Positions 6,003 to 37,354 of a DNA stretch of 64,000 nucleotides are shown here, in pieces (position 1 is the first letter of the stretch; each line of letters starts with the position of its first letter). The stretch comes from Candidatus Aminicenantes bacterium (GTDB lineage: Bacteria; Acidobacteriota; Aminicenantia; Aminicenantales; CAVYOD01): NCBI GenBank assembly GCA_963701305.1, contig OY969586.1, positions 2,825,509 to 2,889,508 of the forward strand, written 5' to 3'. The notes below the pieces were generated by a model. It made no database searches. It was given only the letters and a program-made list of their open reading frames with translations, and was not told the DNA's origin. The translations under genes were made by a program, and so were the position numbers.

Positions 6003-6881
6003 ATGAAGTTGCGCGATAAGCGGAGGTGGTTCCAGTGGCTGAGCACTCTGGGAAATAACATCTACCTCCCCGCGTTTCTCAAAGGGCAGATCTTCCAGGG
6101 CGGCAGCAAGGGGGTGTGTGTTCCCGTATTGAATTGCTACTCTTGCCCGTCCGCAGTTACGGCCTGCCCGATCGGCTCGCTTCAGAACGCCTTCGGGTCG
6201 ATCAGGTTCAAGCTAACCGTGGCCGAATATCAATTCGGCCTCTATGTCCTCGGCCTCCTGGGCGCCGTCGGCGGCCTCGTGGGAAGGATCCCCTGCGGTT
6301 GGCTCTGCCCGTTTGGCCTGATTCAAGAACTCATTTATAAGATCCCGGGACCGAAGATCAAAGTGCCTAAATTCCTGAGCTATTTGAAATACGTGGTCCT
6401 GGCGGTGATGGTCATCGCCCTGCCCCTCCTCATCGTGGACGAATTCGGCTACGGCCAGACCTGGTTCTGCAAGTGGATCTGTCCGGCCGGGACGCTCGAG
6501 GCCGGCATTCCCCTCGTCCTCCTGAGCGCCGCGATCCGCAAGCAGGTCGCCTTCATGTACGCCTGGAAAGTGGGGGTTCTGGTCTTTTTTGTCGCCTGGA
6601 TGATCGTCAGCCAGCGTCCTTTCTGCCGCACGACCTGCCCTCTGGGGGCATTTCTCGGGATCTTCAATAAAATGAGCCTTTTCCGGATGGTCGTAGACGA
6701 TGAAAGGTGCACGGAATGCAATAAGTGCGTCCGGGACTGCCCGGTCGGAGTCGAAGTCTATAAAACGCCCAACAGCCCGGACTGCATCCGCTGTCTGAAG
6801 TGCGTGGATTCCTGCAAATACGGGTATATCGGATACGAATTCCTGCCCAAAAAATCGAAAAAGGAAGAATCTTTGGCCTAG
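6003..6881 (+). CDS. NapH/MauN/CcoG-type membrane polyferredoxin (four CxxCP motifs plus two 4Fe-4S ferredoxin motifs)
   Basis: The CxxCP motifs are CYSCPSAVTACP, CGWLCPFG, CKWICPAG and CRTTCPLG, sitting between hydrophobic helices. The C-terminus carries CTECNKCVRDCP and CIRCLKCVDSC. An RBS ggaggagcgggg precedes the start. Confidence 0.8.
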   Translation: MKLRDKRRWFQWLSTLGNNIYLPAFLKGQIFQGGSKGVCVPVLNCYSCPSAVTACPIGSLQNAFGSIRFKLTVAEYQFGLYVLGLLGAVGGLVGRIPCGWLCPFGLIQELIYKIPGPKIKVPKFLSYLKYVVLAVMVIALPLLIVDEFGYGQTWFCKWICPAGTLEAGIPLVLLSAAIRKQVAFMYAWKVGVLVFFVAWMIVSQRPFCRTTCPLGAFLGIFNKMSLFRMVVDDERCTECNKCVRDCPVGVEVYKTPNSPDCIRCLKCVDSCKYGYIGYEFLPKKSKKEESLA

Positions 6882-19646: not shown

Positions 19647-22206
19647 GTGGAAGAATCTATAAGCAAGGAAAAATCTGTCATGCCCAGACAAAAATTAAGG
19701 AATTCGGTTTCGATCTCGCTTCTTTTCTTCTTCTTTTTATCGGGGATCCTGATCGCTGGAGAAAGAGTTGTGATCAGGGCGCGAAAAATTTACACGGCTG
19801 TGCAGGGGGTCATCGAGGACGGGATCATTCTGATTGAGGACGGGAAGATTTTTTTTGTCGGGAAGCAATTTCCGATTCCGAGTGGCACCCAGGAAATCAA
19901 AGCCAACATTGTGATCCCGGGACTGATTGATATCCATTCCCATCTCGGTGTCTATGGCGTGCCCGCTGTTCCAGAGAATGAGGATGGAAACGAGATGTCC
20001 ACACCGGTCACTCCCGAAGTCCGGGCGCTCGATTCTTTTAACTTTGAAGACCCGTCACTCAAAACGGCCCTCGCCGGAGGGGTGACGACGATCGTCTCTC
20101 GTCCGGGAAGCGGGAATGTCATCGGAGGAACAAGTGTCGCGGTCAAGTTAAAAAATGCGCCTCCGCAGCGCATGGTTTTGAAAGAGATCTGCGATCTCAA
20201 GATGACGATCGAGGGCAATCCGCCGGCCTTTCATGGCCGGCAGAACCGGATGCCGATGACTCTGATGGCCGTCTATTATCTGGCCCGTAAAGCCCTCATC
20301 GAAGCCCAGGATTATATGCAGGCTTGGGAAAAATACGAAAAAGAGAGAAGCAAGGGAGGAGATAGGCTGCCTCCCAAGAGAGACCTGGGGAAGGATGCCC
20401 TGGTCATGGCCCTGAAAAGAGAAATTCCGGTTCATATCCATACCTGCCGGGCGTCGGAGATCATGAGTTGCATCCGCCTGGCCGATGAATTTCATCTGAG
20501 GCTGACGCTGGGACACTGCGATTTCGCCTTTCTCCTGAGGGACGAACTGAAGGGCAGGAAGGATGTTCATTTCAACGTCGGACCTGCCTGGTTTACGACT
20601 TACTATGATGATCCGATGAAAATTCGGAATGTCGCCGCGATCCTGGCCAACGCTGGACTGAACGTTTCGCTCCAGGTCGATGCCGTTTCGGGCCGCCAGC
20701 CGGGACAACAATATCTTCTTCATGCGGCCGATCTTTGCGTCCGGCACGGGATGAAAGAGGACGATGCCATCAAGGCCATAACGATTCGAGGCGCAGAGGC
20801 GGCGGGATTGGAGAATAGAATCGGGAGTCTTGAGAAAGGGAAGGATGCAGATCTCGTATTTTTGGATGGCGAGCCGTTTGAGCTCCTGACCTCGGTCGAA
20901 AGAGTGATGATCGATGGAAAGACCGAGTATCAAAGAGATCCTCTGGAGAGGGTCCCGTCCATGTCATCCCTTCCCCAAGCAACAAGCAAGCTCTCGATTC
21001 CATCTGAGATCAGGAACGCGGAGGGTTTCGCCATCAGGGGCGGAACGGTCCTGCCCATGAACGGACCCAGAATCAACGGCGGAATAGTCCTCGTCAAAAA
21101 CGGGAAAATCGAAAAAGTGGGCCAGGATATCGCCATTCCCAAGGGATGGGCGGTCATAGACGCTCACGATTTCGTCATCATGCCCGGGCTCATCTCTCCC
21201 AGGTCTCAAGTGGGAATTTCACAGAATTGGAGGTTTCAGGAATCGGTTGACGAATTGTCGATGCCGGTCGTGCCCGAGATGGAAGTCAAACACGCCATCG
21301 AGCCCCAGGATGTCCTTTTCTCCTCGTCAAGGACCGTCGGAATCACGACACTCCAGGTGACGCCGGGTGACATGAATGTTATCGGAGGACAGGGGGTGGC
21401 GATCAAGACGGCGGGATCTGTGGTCGACAAGATGATCCTCAAAGATAAGTCCGTCATGGTCTTTGGGCTGGGAGTCGCCGCAAAGAGAAAGAACCAGATG
21501 CCTTCAACGCGGATGGGAATCGTCGCTCTCCTCAGGGAAAATTTGCAGAAAGCCCGGGAGTATAGCAGCCGGCTGGAAAAAGATAAAAGCGGAGGGGAGG
21601 GAGTTCGGACGCCAAGGGATTTTTCCCTGGAAGCATTAGTCCCCGTCGTCCGAGGTGAAATGCCGGTCCTGATCCATTGCGAAAGGCAAGATGACATCAT
21701 GACCGCCTTGAGGATCGCGGACGAATTTCATCTGAAAATAATCCTCTCCGGAGCCGCTGAGGCTTTTGGAGTCGCGGACGAGATAAAAAGGAGAAATATC
21801 CCTGTCATTTTGGAGAGGATTTTCCGCGGCGGAGGAAACACCGAAGATCATGATTTCGATCGCAAAAAAGATCTCGGTCCTGGCCAAGTCCGGCGTCAGA
21901 ATCTCCTTCACCCTCGGAGATTATTTGGCCTGGTATATTCCCCTCGCGCTCATCGGCGCCGACCCTCTCGAAGTGGCCGCCCTGGCCTTCAAGAACGGGT
22001 TGCCTGAAGAAGAAGCTCTGAGGTCTTTCACTATTGAGGCGGCGAGGATCATCGGATGCGAGAACAGGGTAGGCAGCCTGGAGGCGGGAAAGGACGCGGA
22101 CATTCTCATCCTGCGAGGGCACCCGTTTCTGACGCATTCGATCCCCGAGGCCGTCTTCGTTGACGGGAGGCTCGTCTATCAGAGGACGGATCAAGAGAAT
22201 TTATAA
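19647..22206 (+). pseudogene. Tandem two-domain amidohydrolase (metal-dependent hydrolase superfamily), interrupted by a frameshift in an A6 run at about 21864-21869
   Basis: Domain 1 has LIDIHSHLGV (HxH) and ...AIKAITIRGAEAAGLENRIGSLEKGKDADLVFLDG. Domain 2 begins at about aa 470, and its C-terminus continues in ORF 21850..22206 (ALRSFTIEAARIIGCENRVGSLEAGKDADILILRG) in a different frame. The junction is at cgcaaaaaag. Confidence 0.65.
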
Positions 22207-22306: not shown

Positions 22307-23605
22307 TCAGAACATCCTCACAATCCCTCTCCCTCCGGAGCCAAACCGGGGGTTGACGACATTGCTATAGACAGAGCCGAATGTATAACTGAATCCGACC
22401 ATGATGAAATATTGGTAGGTCGTGGCCTGCTCCTTGCGGCGTAACAAAATCTCTTCCAGGGATGCTCCGCCTTTGGCCAACGAGAGTTGATCGTGAATCC
22501 TCGAAGCGCTTCCGTAAACGTTGAAAGAGAGACCCTTGTAGAGCCTCAACGAGACTTCGCCGTCGAGCACCAGGCGGTTTTTTTTGAGGTCATGAAAATA
22601 GTGGGATCCCTCGAGAGACGCGCTCGCTGTTCCCCACTTCTCTTTGACCTCGAGTGTCCCCGACAGATTTTCGTTCCAGAGATTTTCTTTAACCTTGTCA
22701 AAAATGGTTTCTTCCCTGTACCTAGCGTTGGTGTAACCAACTCTGTAGAGAAAACGAAGCTGGCGTCTCGTGGATTGAGAATATGGAAAAAGATTATACT
22801 CAACGGCAGGGGTCAAGCTCAGAGCGAACTTGATATTTTGATAGGTGGACGACTGAACAGCCAAAAATCCCCCAACCGACCAGTGCTTACCCAAACTCTT
22901 GACAACGAGTCCGCTGAAGCTTTGGCTGCTTGAGCTGCTCCGAATTGTCTCCTCATCTACCTTAAAATCGCTTTCATTGCGGGACGCGGAGAGATAGGCA
23001 TTGATCTTGAGCTCGGGAGTCACTCGGTTGGCCGAGAAAGTGCCATAGATGGACTTGGAGGTGTAGGATTTTTCCCCGCTGAAGAACCCGTCCGCACTGA
23101 GGCTGAACACCCAAGAGTTCCATTTGTCCACAACCGAAGTGGGCTTCGGCTGTTCGGTGAGTCCGATCGCAACACACTCGACGATCGGCGTCTTGGCCAC
23201 ATAGCGGACGAGCCCGACCTTCAAGACCCTGACCAATCCCTGTCGGATTTCGTCTTCCGTGTCCGCCTTATGGGAGAAGTATTTCAGGGTTTCATCCATC
23301 CCCTTGAATTCCTTCTGACCGCTGAAGGAAAGGGTGAACTCAAGGCCTCCGCTCCCCGTGCCTTGCAAGGTGATCAGGACGTGGACCTGGGCCTCCCTGC
23401 GTTCCCGGACGTGGTTGACGAAGGTGATTTCGGTTCGGACATAATCGAGATCGCAGTAATACGACTGGCAATCGATGAAAACCCGCGGGGCGCTTTTCTT
23501 CAGTTCTTCAATATCGACCGGCACTTTCTGCGAGAATGCCAGGGAAACCAGAAGGCCAAAAAAAATGAAAGACCAGACGGTGGCCTGTTTTCGGGACCTT
23601 GACAT
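22307..23605 (-). CDS. Putative outer-membrane beta-barrel protein (hypothetical)
   Basis: This is ORF 22307..23671 with the probable start MSRSRKQATVWSFIFFGLLVSLAFSQ (signal peptide). It shows an alternating amphipathic pattern and a C-terminal ...RGIVRMF ending in Phe. Confidence 0.45.
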   Translation of the reverse strand: MSRSRKQATVWSFIFFGLLVSLAFSQKVPVDIEELKKSAPRVFIDCQSYYCDLDYVRTEITFVNHVRERREAQVHVLITLQGTGSGGLEFTLSFSGQKEFKGMDETLKYFSHKADTEDEIRQGLVRVLKVGLVRYVAKTPIVECVAIGLTEQPKPTSVVDKWNSWVFSLSADGFFSGEKSYTSKSIYGTFSANRVTPELKINAYLSASRNESDFKVDEETIRSSSSSQSFSGLVVKSLGKHWSVGGFLAVQSSTYQNIKFALSLTPAVEYNLFPYSQSTRRQLRFLYRVGYTNARYREETIFDKVKENLWNENLSGTLEVKEKWGTASASLEGSHYFHDLKKNRLVLDGEVSLRLYKGLSFNVYGSASRIHDQLSLAKGGASLEEILLRRKEQATTYQYFIMVGFSYTFGSVYSNVVNPRFGSGGRGIVRMF

Positions 23606-23763
23606 CTCTCGCCTCCGTTCGCGGGTGTCCTGCTCTCGACTTGGGATAAAAGTTAACAAGATACAACACAAGTGTCAATGCCGCGTTCCCAAGACCGTAT
23701 CCGGCTTAGGGAGGCGCGCCAAAACTCAGGCCCGTGAGGCGGCCGGGCGCTCTGCCTGGAAAC

Positions 23764-24153
23764 TTAATCGCAGGCCAACCAGGCTACGCAGAGACCCCCG
23801 CTGCCAGAACTCGTTTTCTCGCTCAGACTCATGTTTGCTTCGGGAGATGGCTCTGGCGCCGTCCCACAGCGGACGATAACACTGCAAAATCCGTTGCAGC
23901 ACTGCGGGCACGAGCAGTTCCCCAAAATCTGCACATCGTCCGCAAGGGGAACGACATCGATAACCTCCATGATTTTCCCACGGCAGGTGACGAATTTTGT
24001 CCCCGGGGGCAGGTAGGCCGTTCCGTGAGAGCAAACCTCAATGTACTTGGGCGAGCTCGAGGTGACCTCTGTTGCCTTTGTTCCGGCCGAGTAAGCGGTA
24101 ACCAATAAGACGACCAGGACAACACCAACGAGATACTTCCACAATTTTTTCAT
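23764..24153 (-). CDS. Small secreted cysteine-rich protein (129 aa; 10 Cys in the mature part)
   Basis: A strong RBS aaaggaggagg lies 8 nt upstream. The signal peptide is MKKLWKYLVGVVLVVLLVTAYSAG. The Cys cluster reads NCSCPQCCNGFCSVIVRCG ... LCVAWLACD. Confidence 0.6.
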   Translation of the reverse strand: MKKLWKYLVGVVLVVLLVTAYSAGTKATEVTSSSPKYIEVCSHGTAYLPPGTKFVTCRGKIMEVIDVVPLADDVQILGNCSCPQCCNGFCSVIVRCGTAPEPSPEANMSLSEKTSSGSGGLCVAWLACD

Positions 24154-24291
24154 CGGAAAATCCTCCTCCTTTTTAAGATAAAAAATACTCCATATAGATA
24201 ATACGCTTCTCGGGAAGGAATTTTCTCACGAAGACCCTCCTCAACCCCGCCCGTCCTTTGAGGTTTTTCGGTTTTCACCCGTCCGCGCCCG

Positions 24292-24903
24292 ATGGGGAAG
24301 CACGCCGCTGCGAGCCTGGAAATTGACATCAGCCATAAAATGCCTTATAAGACTCGTAAATCAATGAAGGAGAGCAACCTCGCCGCGGCCGACCTCGAGC
24401 TCGTTTTGCGGAAATTCTCAAACTCAATTAGGTCCAGCGTCTTGAAATTCGGCTTGGAGAAGAGGGGCATTGATCCCGAGGACATCATTCAGGAAGTCCG
24501 GATCAAAATATGGAAGAAATTCGTCAATGAGAAAAAAGTCAATAACCATTCGTCTTATATTAATAGAATTGTAAATTCCACCTTAATAGACTGCATTCGA
24601 AGATCGAGACGGCAAGAGAGGCTCATCTGGCATGCGCAACAACGCGCTCTTCTTCAAGAGGGATGCTGTCAAGAGCCTGGGTCTGAAGACAACCTCTTCA
24701 GAGAGACGATCACCAAAGCCACGGATACGCTCCTGGAATCACGCCGGACGGTTGTCAAGATGTTTCTGTCGGACATGAACATCGAAGAAATTTCTCTTGC
24801 TTTGAAATGGAGCCAAGACAAGACCAGGAACCTGCTTTACAGGGGTCTGGCTGATCTCAAGAGCAGGCTTCTGGAAATGGGGATCGAATATGAACATCGA
24901 TGA
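24292..24903 (+). CDS. ECF-family RNA polymerase sigma factor (sigma-70 regions 2 and 4)
   Basis: Region 2 is DIIQEVRIKIWKKF...YINRIVNSTLIDCIRRSRRQ. Region 4 is RRTVVKMFLSDMNIEEISLALKWSQDKTRNLLYRGLADLKSRL. There is an unusual insert between the two regions (QEGCCQEPGSEDN). The true start may be an internal Met (MPYKTRK or MKESNL). Confidence 0.8.
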   Translation: MGKHAAASLEIDISHKMPYKTRKSMKESNLAAADLELVLRKFSNSIRSSVLKFGLEKRGIDPEDIIQEVRIKIWKKFVNEKKVNNHSSYINRIVNSTLIDCIRRSRRQERLIWHAQQRALLQEGCCQEPGSEDNLFRETITKATDTLLESRRTVVKMFLSDMNIEEISLALKWSQDKTRNLLYRGLADLKSRLLEMGIEYEHR

Positions 24904-25624
24904 TCAGATACTCAGAGCGATTTACCAGGGTCGTGATGAGGCAAAAAAGCCCTCTTCCGGGAAGAGCTGTCCCTCTCCCAAAAAAATGATAAGGCTGCTG
25001 AGATCGCGGTCATCAGAAAGGGAAGCGACGAAACTCGTTGACCACATCTCCCGCTGCCGCGCTTGCGCGGGAGAGTTCGGCTTCCTGCTGGAGGCCCTCA
25101 GACATGAGGAGAAGTTGATCCAGGATCTAAGGCAATGGCTTTCCAGCAAGAATTCCGCTGAGGTCCGGGAGCCGGAGCGCCTAAGAAGTTTTGATCCCGG
25201 GATACACAGGCGGCCTTCCTTTCTCCGGTTTTCAAGGGGCACGGCCTTCTTGCTAAGCGGATTCGTCCTTGTCGGTCTGATTGTTACGGGGCTTTTGATT
25301 TTTCGGGCCCCTGAAAAATATCGGGCCGGAGCGGGATCGAAAGTTGAATTGCTCCAGCCGGTTGATGAAAAGATCTCTTCCTCCGGCTTGGTTTTCCGAT
25401 GGAAGAAGACCAAGAATTCAGAATATTACGTTCTCGAACTGTTTAACAAAGACCTCTCTCCGGTCTGGAAGAGCGAAAGGACAGCAGAAAATTCTGTCGT
25501 CCTTCCCAGAGCCGTAGCGGAAAAGCTGGAGATCAACGGCTCCTATTTCTGGATGATCACAGCCCACGGCACAAACGGGGAGGACATCACTTCACGCCTG
25601 GACGAATTCACCGTCAAGAAGTGA
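24890..25624 (+). CDS. ZAS-type (HxxxCxxC zinc) anti-sigma factor with one TM helix and a periplasmic C-terminal domain
   Basis: The gene overlaps the sigma gene by 14 nt. The zinc motif is HISRCRACAGEF, the TM segment is AFLLSGFVLVGLIVTGLLIF, and about 110 aa follow it. Confidence 0.7.
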   Translation: MNIDDQILRAIYQGRDEAKKPSSGKSCPSPKKMIRLLRSRSSEREATKLVDHISRCRACAGEFGFLLEALRHEEKLIQDLRQWLSSKNSAEVREPERLRSFDPGIHRRPSFLRFSRGTAFLLSGFVLVGLIVTGLLIFRAPEKYRAGAGSKVELLQPVDEKISSSGLVFRWKKTKNSEYYVLELFNKDLSPVWKSERTAENSVVLPRAVAEKLEINGSYFWMITAHGTNGEDITSRLDEFTVKK

Positions 25625-25659
25625 CATCGGGGTCTTGACCTGCCCCTCGACGTTGTGAA

Positions 25660-28560
25660 TCAATCGACATCCACCGTCGACGCGGGTTCGCCGTGCAGAA
25701 CAAACGCGGCCCAATAAAACGGATGGGAATACCTTGATCTGAGCATACCGAGCTTGGCCAGACGAAGGGCTTGAGCTTGGTCATTTCTTTGCGAAAGACG
25801 ATGATAAAAATCGCCCATAAACCTGGCTGTGGCTTTGTCGCTAATTTCCCAGAGGGTCGAAAGCACGGACCTGGCTCCGGAAAAGAAAAAACTCCTGGTC
25901 AAGCCCAGAATTCCTTCTCCTCGCTCATCATACCCCCTGCTGGTCTGGCAGGCTGAGAGCACAACCAGCTCGGCAGCCAATCGAAGATTGGAAATTTCGC
26001 GAACCTGCAGGAAACCATCCTCGCCTGATCTTTCATCCGAAGATAAAACGAGGGCGGACCGAAAAGGTATTTTTTCGTCGAGGAAACCGTGGCAAGCGAA
26101 ATGAATAACCTGGTAGTCCTCTAAACTAAGCTTTTTTATGGTCTCTTCGGCGGCTTCCTTCCCCAGATAGACGGACCGGTTGTTTTTCGAAAAATAGCGA
26201 GAGACATTCTTGATCTCCTGGGCGCTATGGGCGAGGGGAGAAAAGTCGAATCCTTGACCCCGATAAGTCTCTTTCATAATATTGGCCAGACTAATTTTGC
26301 CCTTCTTTCCCGACGAAACATCCGAGGCGTCTAACGCATCCCCGAAAGCTAAGAGGCCCCGAGGATACCGATTTTCCTTCTTTTTCTCCTTCAAAACCAG
26401 AAGCGATGAACAGGAAGAGCCGTAAGATACGATGTACTTTGAAATCAACAATTCCCCGCCGCAGGTTTGATCTCGGAGGAGAGGAAGCGTCTCGAAAGGG
26501 AGGCCAAACAGCGAACCGTCGGGAATGATGATCAAACGGTCGATCCCCTCAGGCAGGTTATTCAGGGCCGAAAAAAGAAGGCCGCGTGACAAGCGTTCCG
26601 CCGCCGGGGCCCCTTTCCATCTTCCTTTAGGAGGGTCGGAGAGGAGCTTCACGTAGGCGCTGATCGAATTTTCGATTTCGGTCCGCGGGGGAAGAGGGAA
26701 AATCATGAATTTGTTTCTGGCCATGGAAATAAGAAGAGAGCCGTTCTCGCCAAGGAAGTATTCGAGGATTGCGGTTTTCTCATCCAGGAGACGTTCCTGA
26801 ACCTGTTTCACTCGAAGGGGAAGGGGAAGGATGACGTTTGCGACGTCGGGCTCCCCGGCGCTCATTCTCGGGTCGAGCGCGAGGTATTCATCTTCAAGCC
26901 GCTTGAGCGTCCTCTGAAGCTCCACGAGCCTGCTCTGGGGCAAATCTCCTGCGGACATTTCGCGAATAACGGCGGAAATACGGCTTGATATCTCATCTTC
27001 TTTCTTCTTCAGGGACGGTTCCGAGGTGCGCCGGCTAGCTTCCCTTGGTTCGCCCAGGCTCTCTAGGAAAGACCTGGCTTTCGCCCTTTCGACGAGACGG
27101 AAGATCTCTTCTTCTTTGCCCGGAGAGACATCTTTTGCGCGAAGTCTGGACAAAAGGTCGATGGCTGACTCATAAACTCTGAATTTGTTTTTCCCAAACC
27201 CCACTTTGTAATAATCAGATGGAATTCGACTTCTCTGAAAATCAATTGTGTCCATAGAACTTTCGTAGCAAGCCATCGCCTGATCATACGCTTGGCTTTT
27301 TTCGTAACACTGTCCGAGGTGGAACAAAGGTTCCCAGAGGAGCCTGGGAGAGACTTTTTCGTCCGCGCTCTGAAGGGCCTTCCGAAAATACGTTTGCGCT
27401 TTTTCGCTATCTCCCGTCTTGAGGGAGCAATTTCCCAAATTGATGAAGATTTCTGCGAGTGCCTCGTGGGCGCCGTTTTTTTCGGCGAGCTCGTAGGCTG
27501 ATTGGAGATAACTTTTTGCCGTATGATAATAGGTCAGATCGAGGTAAGTGTTGCCGACGTTATTGAGGGCCTGTAGCTCAGCCCATGGATCTGCCTTGCT
27601 TCTGGCCGAATCGAGCGCCTCGTTGAAATAGGTCAGCGCTTGATAAAGATCCGATTTGCCGGAAAAAATAAGTCCTTTGTTTCGAAAGCCCTCGCCAAGA
27701 GCGTTGAGATCCTGCGGAAGGGAAACGGTATTTCCCAATCGCAGGTCGATTTCATGTCCCGACAACAGGTAATCTAACGACCTCTCGTAGAGGCCGAACT
27801 GAATTAAGATAAGACCTATGTTTTTTAAGCAAAAGGACTCGTATTCTTTTTTCGAGATGTTGCTGGAAAGGTCCCTCGCCTCGGAATAATTGTTGAGAGC
27901 TTTAGAGTAGTCACCAGAATTGAGATAATAATAGCCAATGTTCATTAGAGATTTGGCTTGTTCCAACCGATCGTTCGATTCTTGGGCAGCTTGAAGGGAC
28001 CGCTGATTGGCCAAGAGAAAGCCACCCAGATCGTGCCTTGCCAGATGCGTCAAGCTCAATTGGCGAAGGCATCTGACTTCGTGCTCCCGGCTTCCGATCG
28101 TTTTGGCCAATTTGACGGCCGAATCGAAATTCTCAACCGATCTGTCATATTTGCCGGCGAGACGATCCTCTTTGCCTCGAGAATAGAGCTCCCAGATCTT
28201 GATGGCCGCCTGGCATTCTTTCATCTCTCTTTTAAAATTGAGGTCCTTCGCGCGCGAAAAGGCGTCTGAGTAAAACTTCAGGGAATCTTCAGGTCGCCCG
28301 CCGGCCCAGCACAATTTTCCCAGAAGCATCGAACACTGGACTTCGTTCTTCGCGTCTTTCATGCTTCGCGCCAGCCCGAGCGCCTGATTCAGCAAATCTG
28401 AGGACTCCTGGATATTTCCCTCTCTCCACCGGGATTCGGCTGATTTGAAAACCTTGATATATTGCTCGAGGGGGCTTTCCGGCTTTCCGGCGGCCGGGTT
28501 TTGGCCGAACGAAAAATGGAGTGCAATGAGGATTTCCAAAAGGATTACCGATAACCTCAT
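25660..28560 (-). CDS. Secreted TPR-repeat plus CHAT-domain (caspase-like) protease
   Basis: This is ORF 25660..28635 with the likely start MRLSVILLEILIALHFSFGQNP (signal peptide). The N-terminal two-thirds is TPR-like (many AxxxYxxA/LG repeats). The C-terminal CHAT domain carries the His/Cys dyad (IHFACHGFLD ... VVLSACQTSRGY). Confidence 0.8.
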   Translation of the reverse strand: MRLSVILLEILIALHFSFGQNPAAGKPESPLEQYIKVFKSAESRWREGNIQESSDLLNQALGLARSMKDAKNEVQCSMLLGKLCWAGGRPEDSLKFYSDAFSRAKDLNFKREMKECQAAIKIWELYSRGKEDRLAGKYDRSVENFDSAVKLAKTIGSREHEVRCLRQLSLTHLARHDLGGFLLANQRSLQAAQESNDRLEQAKSLMNIGYYYLNSGDYSKALNNYSEARDLSSNISKKEYESFCLKNIGLILIQFGLYERSLDYLLSGHEIDLRLGNTVSLPQDLNALGEGFRNKGLIFSGKSDLYQALTYFNEALDSARSKADPWAELQALNNVGNTYLDLTYYHTAKSYLQSAYELAEKNGAHEALAEIFINLGNCSLKTGDSEKAQTYFRKALQSADEKVSPRLLWEPLFHLGQCYEKSQAYDQAMACYESSMDTIDFQRSRIPSDYYKVGFGKNKFRVYESAIDLLSRLRAKDVSPGKEEEIFRLVERAKARSFLESLGEPREASRRTSEPSLKKKEDEISSRISAVIREMSAGDLPQSRLVELQRTLKRLEDEYLALDPRMSAGEPDVANVILPLPLRVKQVQERLLDEKTAILEYFLGENGSLLISMARNKFMIFPLPPRTEIENSISAYVKLLSDPPKGRWKGAPAAERLSRGLLFSALNNLPEGIDRLIIIPDGSLFGLPFETLPLLRDQTCGGELLISKYIVSYGSSCSSLLVLKEKKKENRYPRGLLAFGDALDASDVSSGKKGKISLANIMKETYRGQGFDFSPLAHSAQEIKNVSRYFSKNNRSVYLGKEAAEETIKKLSLEDYQVIHFACHGFLDEKIPFRSALVLSSDERSGEDGFLQVREISNLRLAAELVVLSACQTSRGYDERGEGILGLTRSFFFSGARSVLSTLWEISDKATARFMGDFYHRLSQRNDQAQALRLAKLGMLRSRYSHPFYWAAFVLHGEPASTVDVD

Positions 28561-28784
28561 TCTTAGACACCGGCGCTCGGTGTTTACGCTGGGAAGGTGC
28601 TTGAAAAGGGGAACTCGTAATCTCATTGTTACCATTATACTCGAATTTTGCTCTGCAATCGTATTTCCGGCACAGATACCCAGGATGAGAAAAAAACCAG
28701 ATTTCGATCGTCTAATATTATGAGGACGGAGTGTATTTGGTTCTTTCGATGAATCGAACGACTCCTCGATTTTAGCTCCAGCAT

Positions 28785-29168
28785 ATGGAAAAAAACGAAA
28801 TTCTGATTGTCGACGATGACATCATCGCCCAAAATATGTTAAAGGCAACGTTGGCCAATGCCGGGTATTCCGTGCTCCTCGCTTCCAACGGTGAGGAAGC
28901 TCTCGAGAAAGCGAAAGAATACCACCCTAGGGTGATTATTCTTGATATCATGATGCCCGGAATCGACGGCGGGGAAGTCGCAAACACGCTCAGGAAAGAT
29001 CCCCAGACAAAAAAAATCCCAATCATATTCCTATCCACGCTCATTTCCGAAAGCGAGGAAAGGGCTGGTATCAGGGGAGGCTCGACCAGTTTTTTTTCTA
29101 AGCCGTTTTCGCGAGATAAGTTGCTCAATGAAATCGGCAGATATATACGCCGACAGAGCTCCAACTGA
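28785..29168 (+). CDS. Single-domain CheY-like response regulator receiver
   Basis: ILIVDDDIIAQNMLKATLANAGYSV...VIILDIMMPGIDGGEV...IPIIFLST. It is divergent from the CHAT gene. Confidence 0.8.
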   Translation: MEKNEILIVDDDIIAQNMLKATLANAGYSVLLASNGEEALEKAKEYHPRVIILDIMMPGIDGGEVANTLRKDPQTKKIPIIFLSTLISESEERAGIRGGSTSFFSKPFSRDKLLNEIGRYIRRQSSN

Positions 29169-32430: not shown

Positions 32431-32901
32431 ATGGAATTAAGGCGGAAGCAGATACCAATGCGGCAAAAGGCGTATTTCGAGCAAAAACTGCAAGATCGAC
32501 TGGCTTTCCTGTCTGGGAAGGGGATCGAATCTCCCAAGGCCGACAAAGATACTCTCGTTAGAAAATTGCAGGCAAGAATCAGGGCCGTGAATAATAGGCT
32601 GAGGCTGATTGACGACCACGAAAAGAGAACGGAAGAAATAGCGAAGATAAAGGCCGAAAGGGCGGCAGCCCCCAAGAAAGAAAAAGAAGGCGGCAAAGGA
32701 GAGAAGCCCAAGAAAGCCCCCGAAGAGGGCAAGGGAAAAAAGATAAAGGCGGAAAGGGCGGCAGCGTCTCAGAAAGCGCCGGAAGGCGGCAAAAGCCAGA
32801 AGACGACGGAATCCTCCGAAGAAGGCAAGCCAACAATGAAAAAGAAAGAGGAAGAAACGAGGGAGGAACCGGCAGGCCAGGTGAAGGCAGATAAACAATA
32901 A
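32431..32901 (+). CDS. Lysine/glutamate-rich protein with tandem KIKAERAAA...EGGK repeats (histone H1-like low complexity)
   Basis: This is ORF 32362..32901 with the probable start MELRRKQIPMRQ after RBS gggaggagg. A nucleotide tandem repeat of about 105 bp gives KIKAERAAAPKKEKEGGKGEKPKKAPEEGKGK twice. Confidence 0.4.
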   Translation: MELRRKQIPMRQKAYFEQKLQDRLAFLSGKGIESPKADKDTLVRKLQARIRAVNNRLRLIDDHEKRTEEIAKIKAERAAAPKKEKEGGKGEKPKKAPEEGKGKKIKAERAAASQKAPEGGKSQKTTESSEEGKPTMKKKEEETREEPAGQVKADKQ

Positions 32902-37261: not shown

Positions 37262-37354
37262 CGGGAAGGTATGGGAGTCGAACCCATCCGGGACTTTTGA
37301 AGGCCCCATACTGGATTTGAAGTCCAGAAGGCCCACCGGGACCTTGACCCTCCC
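37262..37354 (-). tRNA. selC: tRNA-Sec (anticodon UCA), 93 nt without an encoded CCA
   Basis: I folded it by hand from the reverse complement. The acceptor stem is 8 bp (GGGAGGGT/ACCTTCCC with one G-U). The D stem is 6 bp with a 4-nt loop (AGGTCC-CGGT-GGGCCT). The anticodon arm is CTGGA-CU-UCA-AA-TCCAG. The long variable arm is GGGGC-CTTCAAAA-GTCCC. The T arm is 5 bp (ATGGG-TTCGACT-CCCAT). The discriminator is G. The 8/5 acceptor/T geometry, the 6-bp D stem with 4-nt loop and G73 are the bacterial tRNA-Sec signature. It lies immediately downstream of selB. Confidence 0.8.

Follow-up and report, generated by a model that had tools for sequence, protein, structure and literature searches.

A predicted periplasmic TPR-CHAT protease conserved beside an ECF sigma factor/anti-sigma factor pair in Candidatus Aminicenantes, and its possible role in releasing the sigma factor

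The question raised by this locus is whether a protease that is sent to the periplasm could control, from there, a sigma factor that is encoded next to it. The locus lies in a 64-kb stretch of Candidatus Aminicenantes DNA (contig OY969586.1; the whole stretch is hereafter the window), in which a five-gene cluster at positions 23764-29168 was examined. An initial annotation had described the cluster as a Cys-rich mini-protein, a sigma factor of the extracytoplasmic function (ECF) type, an anti-sigma factor, a protein joining tetratricopeptide repeats (TPR) to a caspase-like CHAT domain and a lone receiver, and all five parts are borne out by the list of open reading frames (ORFs) and by profile searches at the coordinates given here. 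The three genes on which the argument turns are:

24364-24903, + strand: ECF sigma factor gene, 179 aa counted from M25 of a 203-aa ORF that begins at 24292
24890-25624, + strand: single-pass anti-sigma factor gene, 244 aa, with C27/H52/C56/C59, a transmembrane (TM) helix at 117-138 and an FN3-like domain at 154-243
25660-28560, - strand: TPR-CHAT gene, product predicted to be exported, 966 aa counted from M26 of a 991-aa ORF that extends to 28635

The case that these three genes belong together is a comparative one. A word-index search with the anti-sigma factor returned 25 proteins, and their contigs, with a scan of species-representative genomes, gave loci L001-L021, most of which come from metagenome-assembled genomes (MAGs) of Candidatus Aminicenantes, a group for which we know of no cultured representative. 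When family hidden Markov models were mapped onto all six-frame ORFs of each locus, the window and each of the 18 further non-redundant loci showed the order sigma factor, anti-sigma factor and convergent TPR-CHAT gene, an order kept at anti-sigma identities as low as 26-29% and among flanking genes that are unrelated. In the reverse test an alignment of the CHAT domain was used against metagenome contigs, only those loci being counted that continue for at least 700 nt downstream of the CHAT gene, and the loci were sorted by the identity of their CHAT domain to that of the window:

Identity of at least 45%: convergent anti-sigma gene in 30/30 loci
Identity of 40-44%: convergent anti-sigma gene in 6/9 loci
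Identity of 38-39%: convergent anti-sigma gene in 4/13 loci
Identity of 34-37%: convergent anti-sigma gene in 0/20 loci

Because a convergent anti-sigma gene is universal in the first group and missing from the last, the tie to the sigma/anti-sigma pair is a property of one particular CHAT clade that its neighbouring clades do not share. The survey of TPR-CHAT genes beside ECF/anti-sigma pairs that the initial annotation had proposed thus yields, from either direction, a strictly conserved linkage. Since it is conserved across dozens of loci the gene arrangement is far beyond chance, and the loci that carry the triad span 29-70% GC. On one 70%-GC contig (L077, 1730-5848, + strand) the sigma, FN3 anti-sigma and TPR-CHAT genes are all co-directional, so the linkage survives rearrangement. 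We hold with high confidence that the sigma factor, the anti-sigma factor and the convergent, exported TPR-CHAT protein form one functional unit. The CHAT protein of L077 has an Arg-rich leader, and the end of its ORF encodes a hydrophobic stretch, possibly a C-terminal anchor.

An exhaustive search with the anti-sigma profile gave 268 representative clusters (50% identity) at E<=1e-30. Among the best 150 representatives 149 are of 182-259 aa, most match over nearly their full length and none is a TPR-CHAT fusion. The sole long exception, P0205 (2,975 aa), owes its match entirely to 25 tandem copies of the FN3-like domain, which therefore also serves as a repeat module outside anti-sigma factors. 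In the long-read MAGs L001/L010 (8714-11580, - strand) and L021 (7441-11616) the CHAT gene is split into two ORFs, and in L021 the sigma and anti-sigma genes are likewise split. Homopolymer errors are more likely than real decay as the cause of split module genes in long-read MAGs, and the split CHAT gene of the closest relative (L001/L010) is probably an assembly error of this kind and not decay.

The sigma factor matches the Pfam model Sigma70_r2 with 28.1 bits (cutoff 24) and the NCBIfam sigma70-ECF model TIGR02937 with 46.8 bits (cutoff 42.9), while Sigma70_r4_2 reaches 19.9 bits, below its cutoff of 25.7; with a length of 179-203 aa it has the domain content of an ECF (group 4) sigma-70 factor. 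A PDB sequence search with it gave nothing useful. The true start is probably 24364 and the 203-aa ORF over-extended, because in the family alignment its relatives all start at a Met aligned with 24364 and because a promoter lies inside the longer ORF:

24323-24351, + strand: sigma-70-type promoter of the sigma/anti-sigma operon (TTGACA, 17 nt, TATAAG, read from the sequence)

This TTGACA-N17-TATAAG promoter is conserved in the window's clade (L001, L002, L006, L008, L009 and L012) and ends 12 nt before the ATG at 24364, so that the sigma/anti-sigma mRNA would be nearly leaderless.

The ORF of the anti-sigma factor overlaps the sigma gene by 14 nt. Its product carries the motif H52-ISR-C56-RA-C59 (H-x3-C-x2-C), and in an alignment of 21 sequences C27 and H52 are invariant and C56 and C59 are conserved in at least 90%, which is the ligand motif of a zinc-binding anti-sigma (ZAS) factor; the same alignment also brings out the hydrophobic helix (117-138) and the conservation of the C-terminal domain. 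The AlphaFold2 model consists of helices at 30-89 (an N-terminal domain of moderate confidence), disorder at 89-118, the TM helix, juxtamembrane disorder at 136-149 and a beta-sandwich at 154-243 that is FN3-like (predicted local distance difference test, pLDDT, ~88). The description of this protein in the initial annotation as an HxxxCxxC anti-sigma factor with a periplasmic tail is therefore sustained, the tail being a predicted periplasmic FN3-like domain, and the cytoplasmic CHCC zinc-type domain is predicted to bind the sigma factor. No Pfam or NCBIfam model matched the window's anti-sigma factor, even at E<=10, and PADLOC likewise gave no match to it. Inspection of an alignment of 62 unique family members shows that most keep an Arg in the disordered linker, usually as [E/K]-[Y/F/I]-R-[G/A/S/T]; in the window this reads PEKYR145-A, and E-K-Y-R145 followed by A/G is a candidate cleavage site.

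The third protein matches Pfam CHAT (PF12770) at E=1.8e-66 (225 bits) and TPR_12 at 8e-32 with many other TPR matches, the TPR array occupying residues ~60-500 and the CHAT domain 679-982 (991-aa numbering here and below). HFACHG and LSACQT are both present, and H849 and C896 are invariant in 22/22 CHAT proteins of the family and align with the catalytic dyads of Csx29 and of DdvA (H862/C907), so the catalytic His/Cys on which the initial annotation depended is in place. The domain model and the dyad together are those of a CHAT-domain protease, and proteolytic activity is predicted. A Cys directly before the catalytic His (F-A-C-H-G, residues 847-850; 26086-26097, - strand) is kept in all partner CHATs, whereas that position is Ala or Thr in the second-copy paralogues found at other loci; that this Cys is a redox latch for a periplasmic cysteine protease is a speculation.

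The 966-aa protein begins MRLSVILLEILIALHFSFGQ and has a predicted signal peptide, MRLSVILLEILIALHFSFG, with cleavage before Q. Export was called from an N-terminal hydrophobic 12-mer with a mean Kyte-Doolittle value of at least 1.9, or from a lipobox, and signal or lipoprotein leaders were so predicted at the N-terminus of 34/39 full-length partner CHATs (three of the 34 being lipobox-like), in agreement with the export proposed in the initial annotation. The other five are from AT-rich genomes and have a T9-T10 tract exactly where a leader would be encoded. They belong to L007, L013, L014, L026 and L027, and the tract was inspected in the first three: in L007 (~6280-6300, - strand) and L013 (~6230-6250, - strand) repairing an apparent frameshift at the tract restores a signal peptide, and in L014 (~11700, - strand) the tract is read through in frame and there is a weak leader only. 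The poly-T frameshift of L007 and L013 could reflect slipped-strand mispairing, and hence phase variation, or else an error of assembly. The TPR-CHAT protein is very probably exported and, given the export leaders on the CHATs and the topology of the anti-sigma factor, the CHAT protease and the FN3 domain are predicted to be both periplasmic.

How such a protease might act on the pair can be set out as a series of steps. The anti-sigma factor would hold the ECF sigma factor at the inner membrane through its cytoplasmic CHCC zinc-type domain, and a protein cue in the periplasm would be sensed by the TPR array. Once activated, the CHAT domain would serve as a trans-acting site-1 protease and cut the juxtamembrane linker at the candidate site E-K-Y-R145 and so remove the FN3 domain, after which an RseP-type site-2 protease would cleave the TM segment and, with cytoplasmic proteases, free the sigma factor. 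That CHAT is the site-1 protease of the anti-sigma factor is the best hypothesis, although a tentative one, in which both the cleavage and the contact between the two proteins are presumed. Regulated intramembrane proteolysis of anti-sigma factors is known from RseA/DegS/RseP in E. coli and RsiW/PrsW/RasP in B. subtilis. The likeness to RseA and RsiW lies in a single-pass anti-sigma factor, in a periplasmic domain of ~100 residues whose loss is thought to open the way to site-2 cleavage and in a dedicated, sensing site-1 protease. The proposed site-1 protease differs, however, in being a caspase/CHAT protein with a TPR sensor, rather than a PDZ serine protease or a PrsW metalloprotease, and in being encoded beside its presumed substrate.

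The same synteny would also be expected of a TPR-CHAT protein that does not cleave the anti-sigma factor at all but binds its FN3 domain as a co-sensor, in the manner of RseB on RseA or of securin and separase reversed, with its protease aimed at another periplasmic substrate and with binding or release gating a conventional site-1 protease. Both TPR arrays and FN3 domains serve in protein-protein interaction, and it is generally known, from RseB for example, that the third genes of ECF operons often encode modulators of the anti-sigma factor. The dyad is invariant in every partner, however, so that catalysis matters, and no other conserved protease gene was found in the neighbourhoods of the related loci examined. 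A co-sensor of this kind is considered distinctly unlikely, and cleavage in trans by the CHAT protease is the reading that is followed here.

The closest precedent is DdvA/DdvS, of which the window's locus is a split version that would act in trans. DdvA of Myxococcus is a periplasmic TPR-CHAT fused to an anti-sigma factor, with DdvS as its partner sigma factor and with zinc ligands that follow the CHCC pattern; truncation of the periplasmic TPR-CHAT makes the anti-sigma factor a substrate of RseP, which the TPR-CHAT blocks until it is removed, and the authors propose that CHAT is a site-1 protease that cuts the linker in trans within a dimer (PMC11506125). The locus resembles DdvA in the ECF sigma factor, the CHCC anti-sigma domain, the single TM helix, the flexible periplasmic linker, the CGT in the -10 element of the candidate promoters described below and a TPR-CHAT with a His/Cys dyad, the proposed site-1 protease licensing RseP, whose periplasmic location beside the ECF pair is predicted from the leaders. 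It differs in that the 244-aa anti-sigma factor ends in an FN3-like domain of its own and the TPR-CHAT is a separate, convergently encoded and signal-peptide-bearing protein, so that the proposed cleavage is between two proteins and not within a dimer. There are further differences in the -35 element (TGAGAA here, as against GTAA-N16-CGT for DdvA targets), in the phylum, in the absence of CBASS and CRISPR genes beside the module and in the CHAT domains, which are only distantly related (E=2.4e-4).

A more remote comparison is with separase/securin and with CHAT/orthocaspase proteins such as HetF, which share the TPR-CHAT architecture and the caspase-type dyad; the similarity to separase is at the level of the fold family only (E ~0.9). 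Separase cuts after Arg in an ExxR motif (cited in PMC11506125), and the E-K-Y-R of the linker is alike, which is a lead only. A search of literature full text for papers that connect a sigma factor with a periplasmic CHAT returned the DdvA papers only, CHAT goes unmentioned in the main text of the paper that reclassified ECF factors (PMC7826278), and no description of this ECF group was found in the literature searched.

What a freed sigma factor would transcribe is suggested by a motif, TGAGAA(W3-4)-N13-C[G/A]T[C/T]T, that is shared by the sigma-proximal intergenic regions. It has the form of an ECF promoter (-35 TGAGAA, 17-nt spacer, -10 CGTCT), and a promoter with CGT in the -10 element and a co-transcribed cognate anti-sigma gene, here one that overlaps the sigma gene, are both features of ECF systems. 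A position weight matrix (PWM) scan found only three sites in the window, where shuffled sequence reaches 15 bits at most. Two of the sites precede the remaining two genes of the cluster and the third is inside the sigma ORF:

23764-24153, - strand: Cys-rich mini-protein gene, 129 aa, 10 Cys, predicted signal peptide ending ...AYSA before GTKAT
28785-29168, + strand: CheY-like stand-alone receiver gene, 127 aa, Pfam Response_reg PF00072 at E=2.3e-25
24200-24228, - strand: candidate ECF-type promoter of the mini-protein gene (PWM position 24231), -35 TGAGAA at 24228-24223, N17, -10 CGTATT at 24205-24200; 31 bits
28686-28714, + strand: candidate ECF-type promoter of the receiver gene (PWM position 28683), TGAGAA at 28686-28691, N17, CGTCTA at 28709-28714; 31 bits
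24528-24556, + strand: candidate internal promoter in the sigma ORF (PWM position 24525), TGAGAA-N17-CGTCTT; 24 bits, outside the training set

The motif also precedes the receiver genes of L001 and L009. No site was found by the PWM scan at the window's CHAT gene, which has a perfect TATAAT at 28639-28634 (- strand) instead. Unique instances of the motif were also tallied across 69 loci having an anti-sigma gene:

Inside the sigma gene: 35
Upstream of the CHAT gene: 20, with 2 more in over-extended ORFs
Upstream of the mini-protein gene: 12
Upstream of the sigma-54 activator gene: 11
Upstream of the sigma gene: 11
Upstream of the receiver gene: 4
Elsewhere in the 69 loci: 7

The motif is almost confined to the module's own genes, and we infer that TGAGAA-N17-CGTCT is the promoter used by the module's sigma factor. 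In this genome the freed sigma factor would transcribe the mini-protein and receiver genes, and in other clades the same promoter would drive the CHAT gene, the sigma-54 activator gene and the sigma operon.

The frequency of the motif upstream of CHAT genes, across clades, lends itself to another explanation, in which the TPR-CHAT protein is an output of the sigma factor and not its activator. It would then be a periplasmic effector (for envelope remodelling, defence or self-destruction) whose gene is adjacent as a member of the regulon, the anti-sigma factor being inactivated otherwise, through its zinc/thiol site or by another site-1 protease; ZAS-type anti-sigma factors can indeed respond directly to redox (discussion in PMC11506125, and general knowledge). 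However, the window's own clade lacks the motif at the CHAT gene and the adjacency is still kept. A tail-to-tail adjacency that is strict over the whole range of GC, and operon-like in one locus, is stronger than is usual for a regulon member, and CHAT always stays whereas the mini-protein, the receiver and the sigma-54 activator come and go. An output role is on balance somewhat unlikely, and a CHAT protein acting upstream of the sigma factor is preferred.

The clades differ in what accompanies the triad. The window's clade has the divergent Cys-rich mini-protein, joined in some members by the stand-alone receiver. In a second clade the divergent gene is that of a sigma-54 activator (AAA+ with HTH_8, a helix-turn-helix, HTH, domain), and a second TPR-CHAT is often present; in a third it is that of a ~440-aa protein with an HTH at the N-terminus. 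Because both sit behind the module's promoter motif, the mini-protein and the receiver are not chance neighbours; they are clade-specific accessory genes behind a candidate sigma-dependent promoter. The five-part cluster of the initial annotation therefore stands as to the triad, which is conserved, and not as to the mini-protein and receiver, which are no part of a core. The receiver has D10-D12, D54 and K106, the acidic pocket and phospho-acceptor Asp of a receiver domain being visible, and is without an output domain or an adjacent kinase. It was rejected as a core part of the module, its gene being present in four loci only (the window, L001, L009 and L022). The best explanation of the whole locus is a three-gene envelope signalling module with clade-specific outputs.

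The site inside the sigma gene is of a different kind. The nucleotides 'T GAG AA' and 'NCG T' are kept in register in 37/45 unique sigma genes. The first codon of the site, for H, N, G, S, D or R, has T as its last base throughout; Glu is encoded by GAG in 37/37, as against 30% of the Glu codons elsewhere in the same genes; and codon 9, for S, A or P, is NCG in 37/37, where the background frequency of G at that position is 20%. Selection at the nucleotide level therefore acts on the internal site, whose bases are kept while the amino acids that they encode change. A transcript starting there would carry the 3' half of the sigma gene and the whole of the anti-sigma gene, and its simplest reading is a sigma-dependent re-supply of the anti-sigma factor, which would amount to negative feedback.

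The mini-protein has to be considered as a possible substrate in its own right. Its family comprises only 13 proteins in a word-index search of 5.8 billion sequences, with 10/10 Cys invariant in the 13 homologues, and its gene is divergent from the sigma gene in all nine other loci with a full-length mini-protein gene. There was no Pfam, NCBIfam or PADLOC match to it (in Pfam and NCBIfam even at E<=10), and its AlphaFold2 model is of low confidence (pLDDT 58.7), with no Foldseek match at E<1. A variable, low-confidence insert (residues ~97-118) separates two conserved Cys-rich parts, and it is conceivable that CHAT matures the secreted mini-protein by cutting this disordered insert, the sigma pair only regulating its production. 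The top-scoring motif site in the window's clade does belong to the mini-protein gene, and weak mini-like ORFs in the distant loci L049 and L056 adjoin CHAT rather than sigma. On the other hand, the insert is deleted in L008, L009, L012 and L045, and the mini-protein is absent from the sigma-54-activator and HTH-protein clades, where CHAT and the FN3 anti-sigma factor persist. Maturation of the mini-protein as the purpose of the protease is thus very unlikely, and the anti-sigma factor is favoured as the substrate.

Taken at its fullest, the proposal is that a periplasmic CHAT protease is the dedicated trans-acting site-1 protease of a large ECF sigma/anti-sigma family (at least the 268 clusters, mainly from Aminicenantes) that has its own promoter code and an embedded feedback promoter; this is possible, and it is put forward more tentatively than the cleavage itself. 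Several points weigh against the cleavage model. The N-terminal domain of the anti-sigma factor goes unrecognised, with zf-HC2 (PF13490) matching 1/21 relatives at E=0.005 and a PDB search with the anti-sigma profile giving nothing relevant to that domain. The conserved linker Arg could be a mere membrane-flanking residue. The export calls are heuristics and not those of SignalP. The motif at CHAT genes in most clades fits an output as well as it fits positive feedback, and because the anti-sigma and CHAT genes are convergent they are not co-transcribed. The site-1 role of DdvA is itself unproven, mutants of its dyad having no phenotype in the absence of signal (PMC11506125).

An affinity of a different sort had been seen in the initial annotation, which noted an echo of type III-E CRISPR loci. 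These encode Craspase, in which Cas7-11 and Csx29 cleave Csx30 and so release the sigma factor RpoE, in a cytoplasmic, RNA-guided and cas-associated system. A degraded or CRISPR-independent offshoot of such a locus (Csx29/Csx30/Csx31/RpoE) would account for the like categories of genes, with a TPR-CHAT beside an ECF-type sigma factor in one locus and proteolysis proposed to release the sigma factor, and there is a PDB profile match to Csx29 at E=1.4e-5. The match to the NCBIfam Csx29 model (NF041237) is weak, however, at 30.3 bits, one tenth of the family cutoff of 300, and is not that of a Csx29 orthologue. Csx29 is cytoplasmic whereas the CHAT protein here is predicted to be exported, and the anti-sigma factor is a membrane ZAS-like protein, as Csx30 is not; RNA guidance, the link to cas genes and the cytoplasmic site of action are all missing from this module. 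The window contains no cas gene, tandem CRISPR array, Rfam CRISPR family or relevant PADLOC defence match, and cas genes are likewise absent from the gene tables, annotated with Pfam, of the first nine related loci. The statement in the initial annotation that cas genes and an array are absent, and that the system is independent of CRISPR, is thus upheld in the window, the resemblance to type III-E is superficial with DdvA as the true precedent, and a type III-E remnant was rejected as effectively refuted.

Of characterised systems, DdvA alone links a periplasmic CHAT protease to an ECF sigma factor, and in it the protease and the presumed substrate form a single polypeptide. In the present module they are separate proteins, which makes the cleavage hypothesis directly testable. 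The analysis also defines a sizeable ECF group with a predicted promoter and a local regulon, including an unusual, predicted sigma-dependent promoter that is kept inside the sigma gene by selection at synonymous sites, and it carries the idea of sigma factors set free by caspase-like proteases into settings outside CRISPR and defence. If the proposal is true, this would be the first two-protein case in which caspase-like proteolysis controls bacterial transcription without CRISPR, and the module would be a tractable model for the unproven mechanism of DdvA.

The surroundings of the cluster do not set it apart. Its GC content is 50.3% against 54.2% for the window, which is at the 15th percentile among 5.4-kb windows, and the 10 kb to its right have a similarly low 50.5%; the low GC remarked on in the initial annotation is thus not distinctive, and a horizontally acquired low-GC island is not supported. 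Adjoining the mini-protein gene is a gene for a signal-peptide protein of 432/454 aa (22307-23671, - strand) that falls outside the Pfam and NCBIfam families, counts over 6,400 metagenome homologues at ~60% identity and ends in ...VRMF, a C-terminus that recalls outer-membrane barrels. It is uncharacterised and very common in the lineage. It recurs in five loci and was rejected as a part of the module, for which homologues number a few dozen, so that it looks like a common protein of the lineage that is merely syntenic.

Further from the cluster, a two-domain amidohydrolase gene (19647-22206, + strand) is broken by a frameshift near 21870 into ORFs of 786 aa and 118 aa; L001 has an intact orthologue of 842 aa with 95-96% identity on either side of the break, and the window's gene is either a pseudogene or the result of a sequencing error. 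A purine-rich 96-nt tandem repeat at 32644-32829 (+ strand; 1.9 copies, 77% matches) has a consensus that would encode a Lys/Glu/Ala-rich stretch. A tRNA-Sec gene at 37263-37354 (- strand; Rfam RF01852, 71.9 bits) indicates that the organism probably uses selenocysteine. The predicted signal peptides of the lineage often end in G/A followed by Gln (SFG, YA, YG or FS before Q), as seen at 28495-28560 (- strand) and 23606-23671 (- strand) and also in L002, L009 and L011, and these ends recall the rule of a Gln after the cleavage site that is known from Bacteroidetes.

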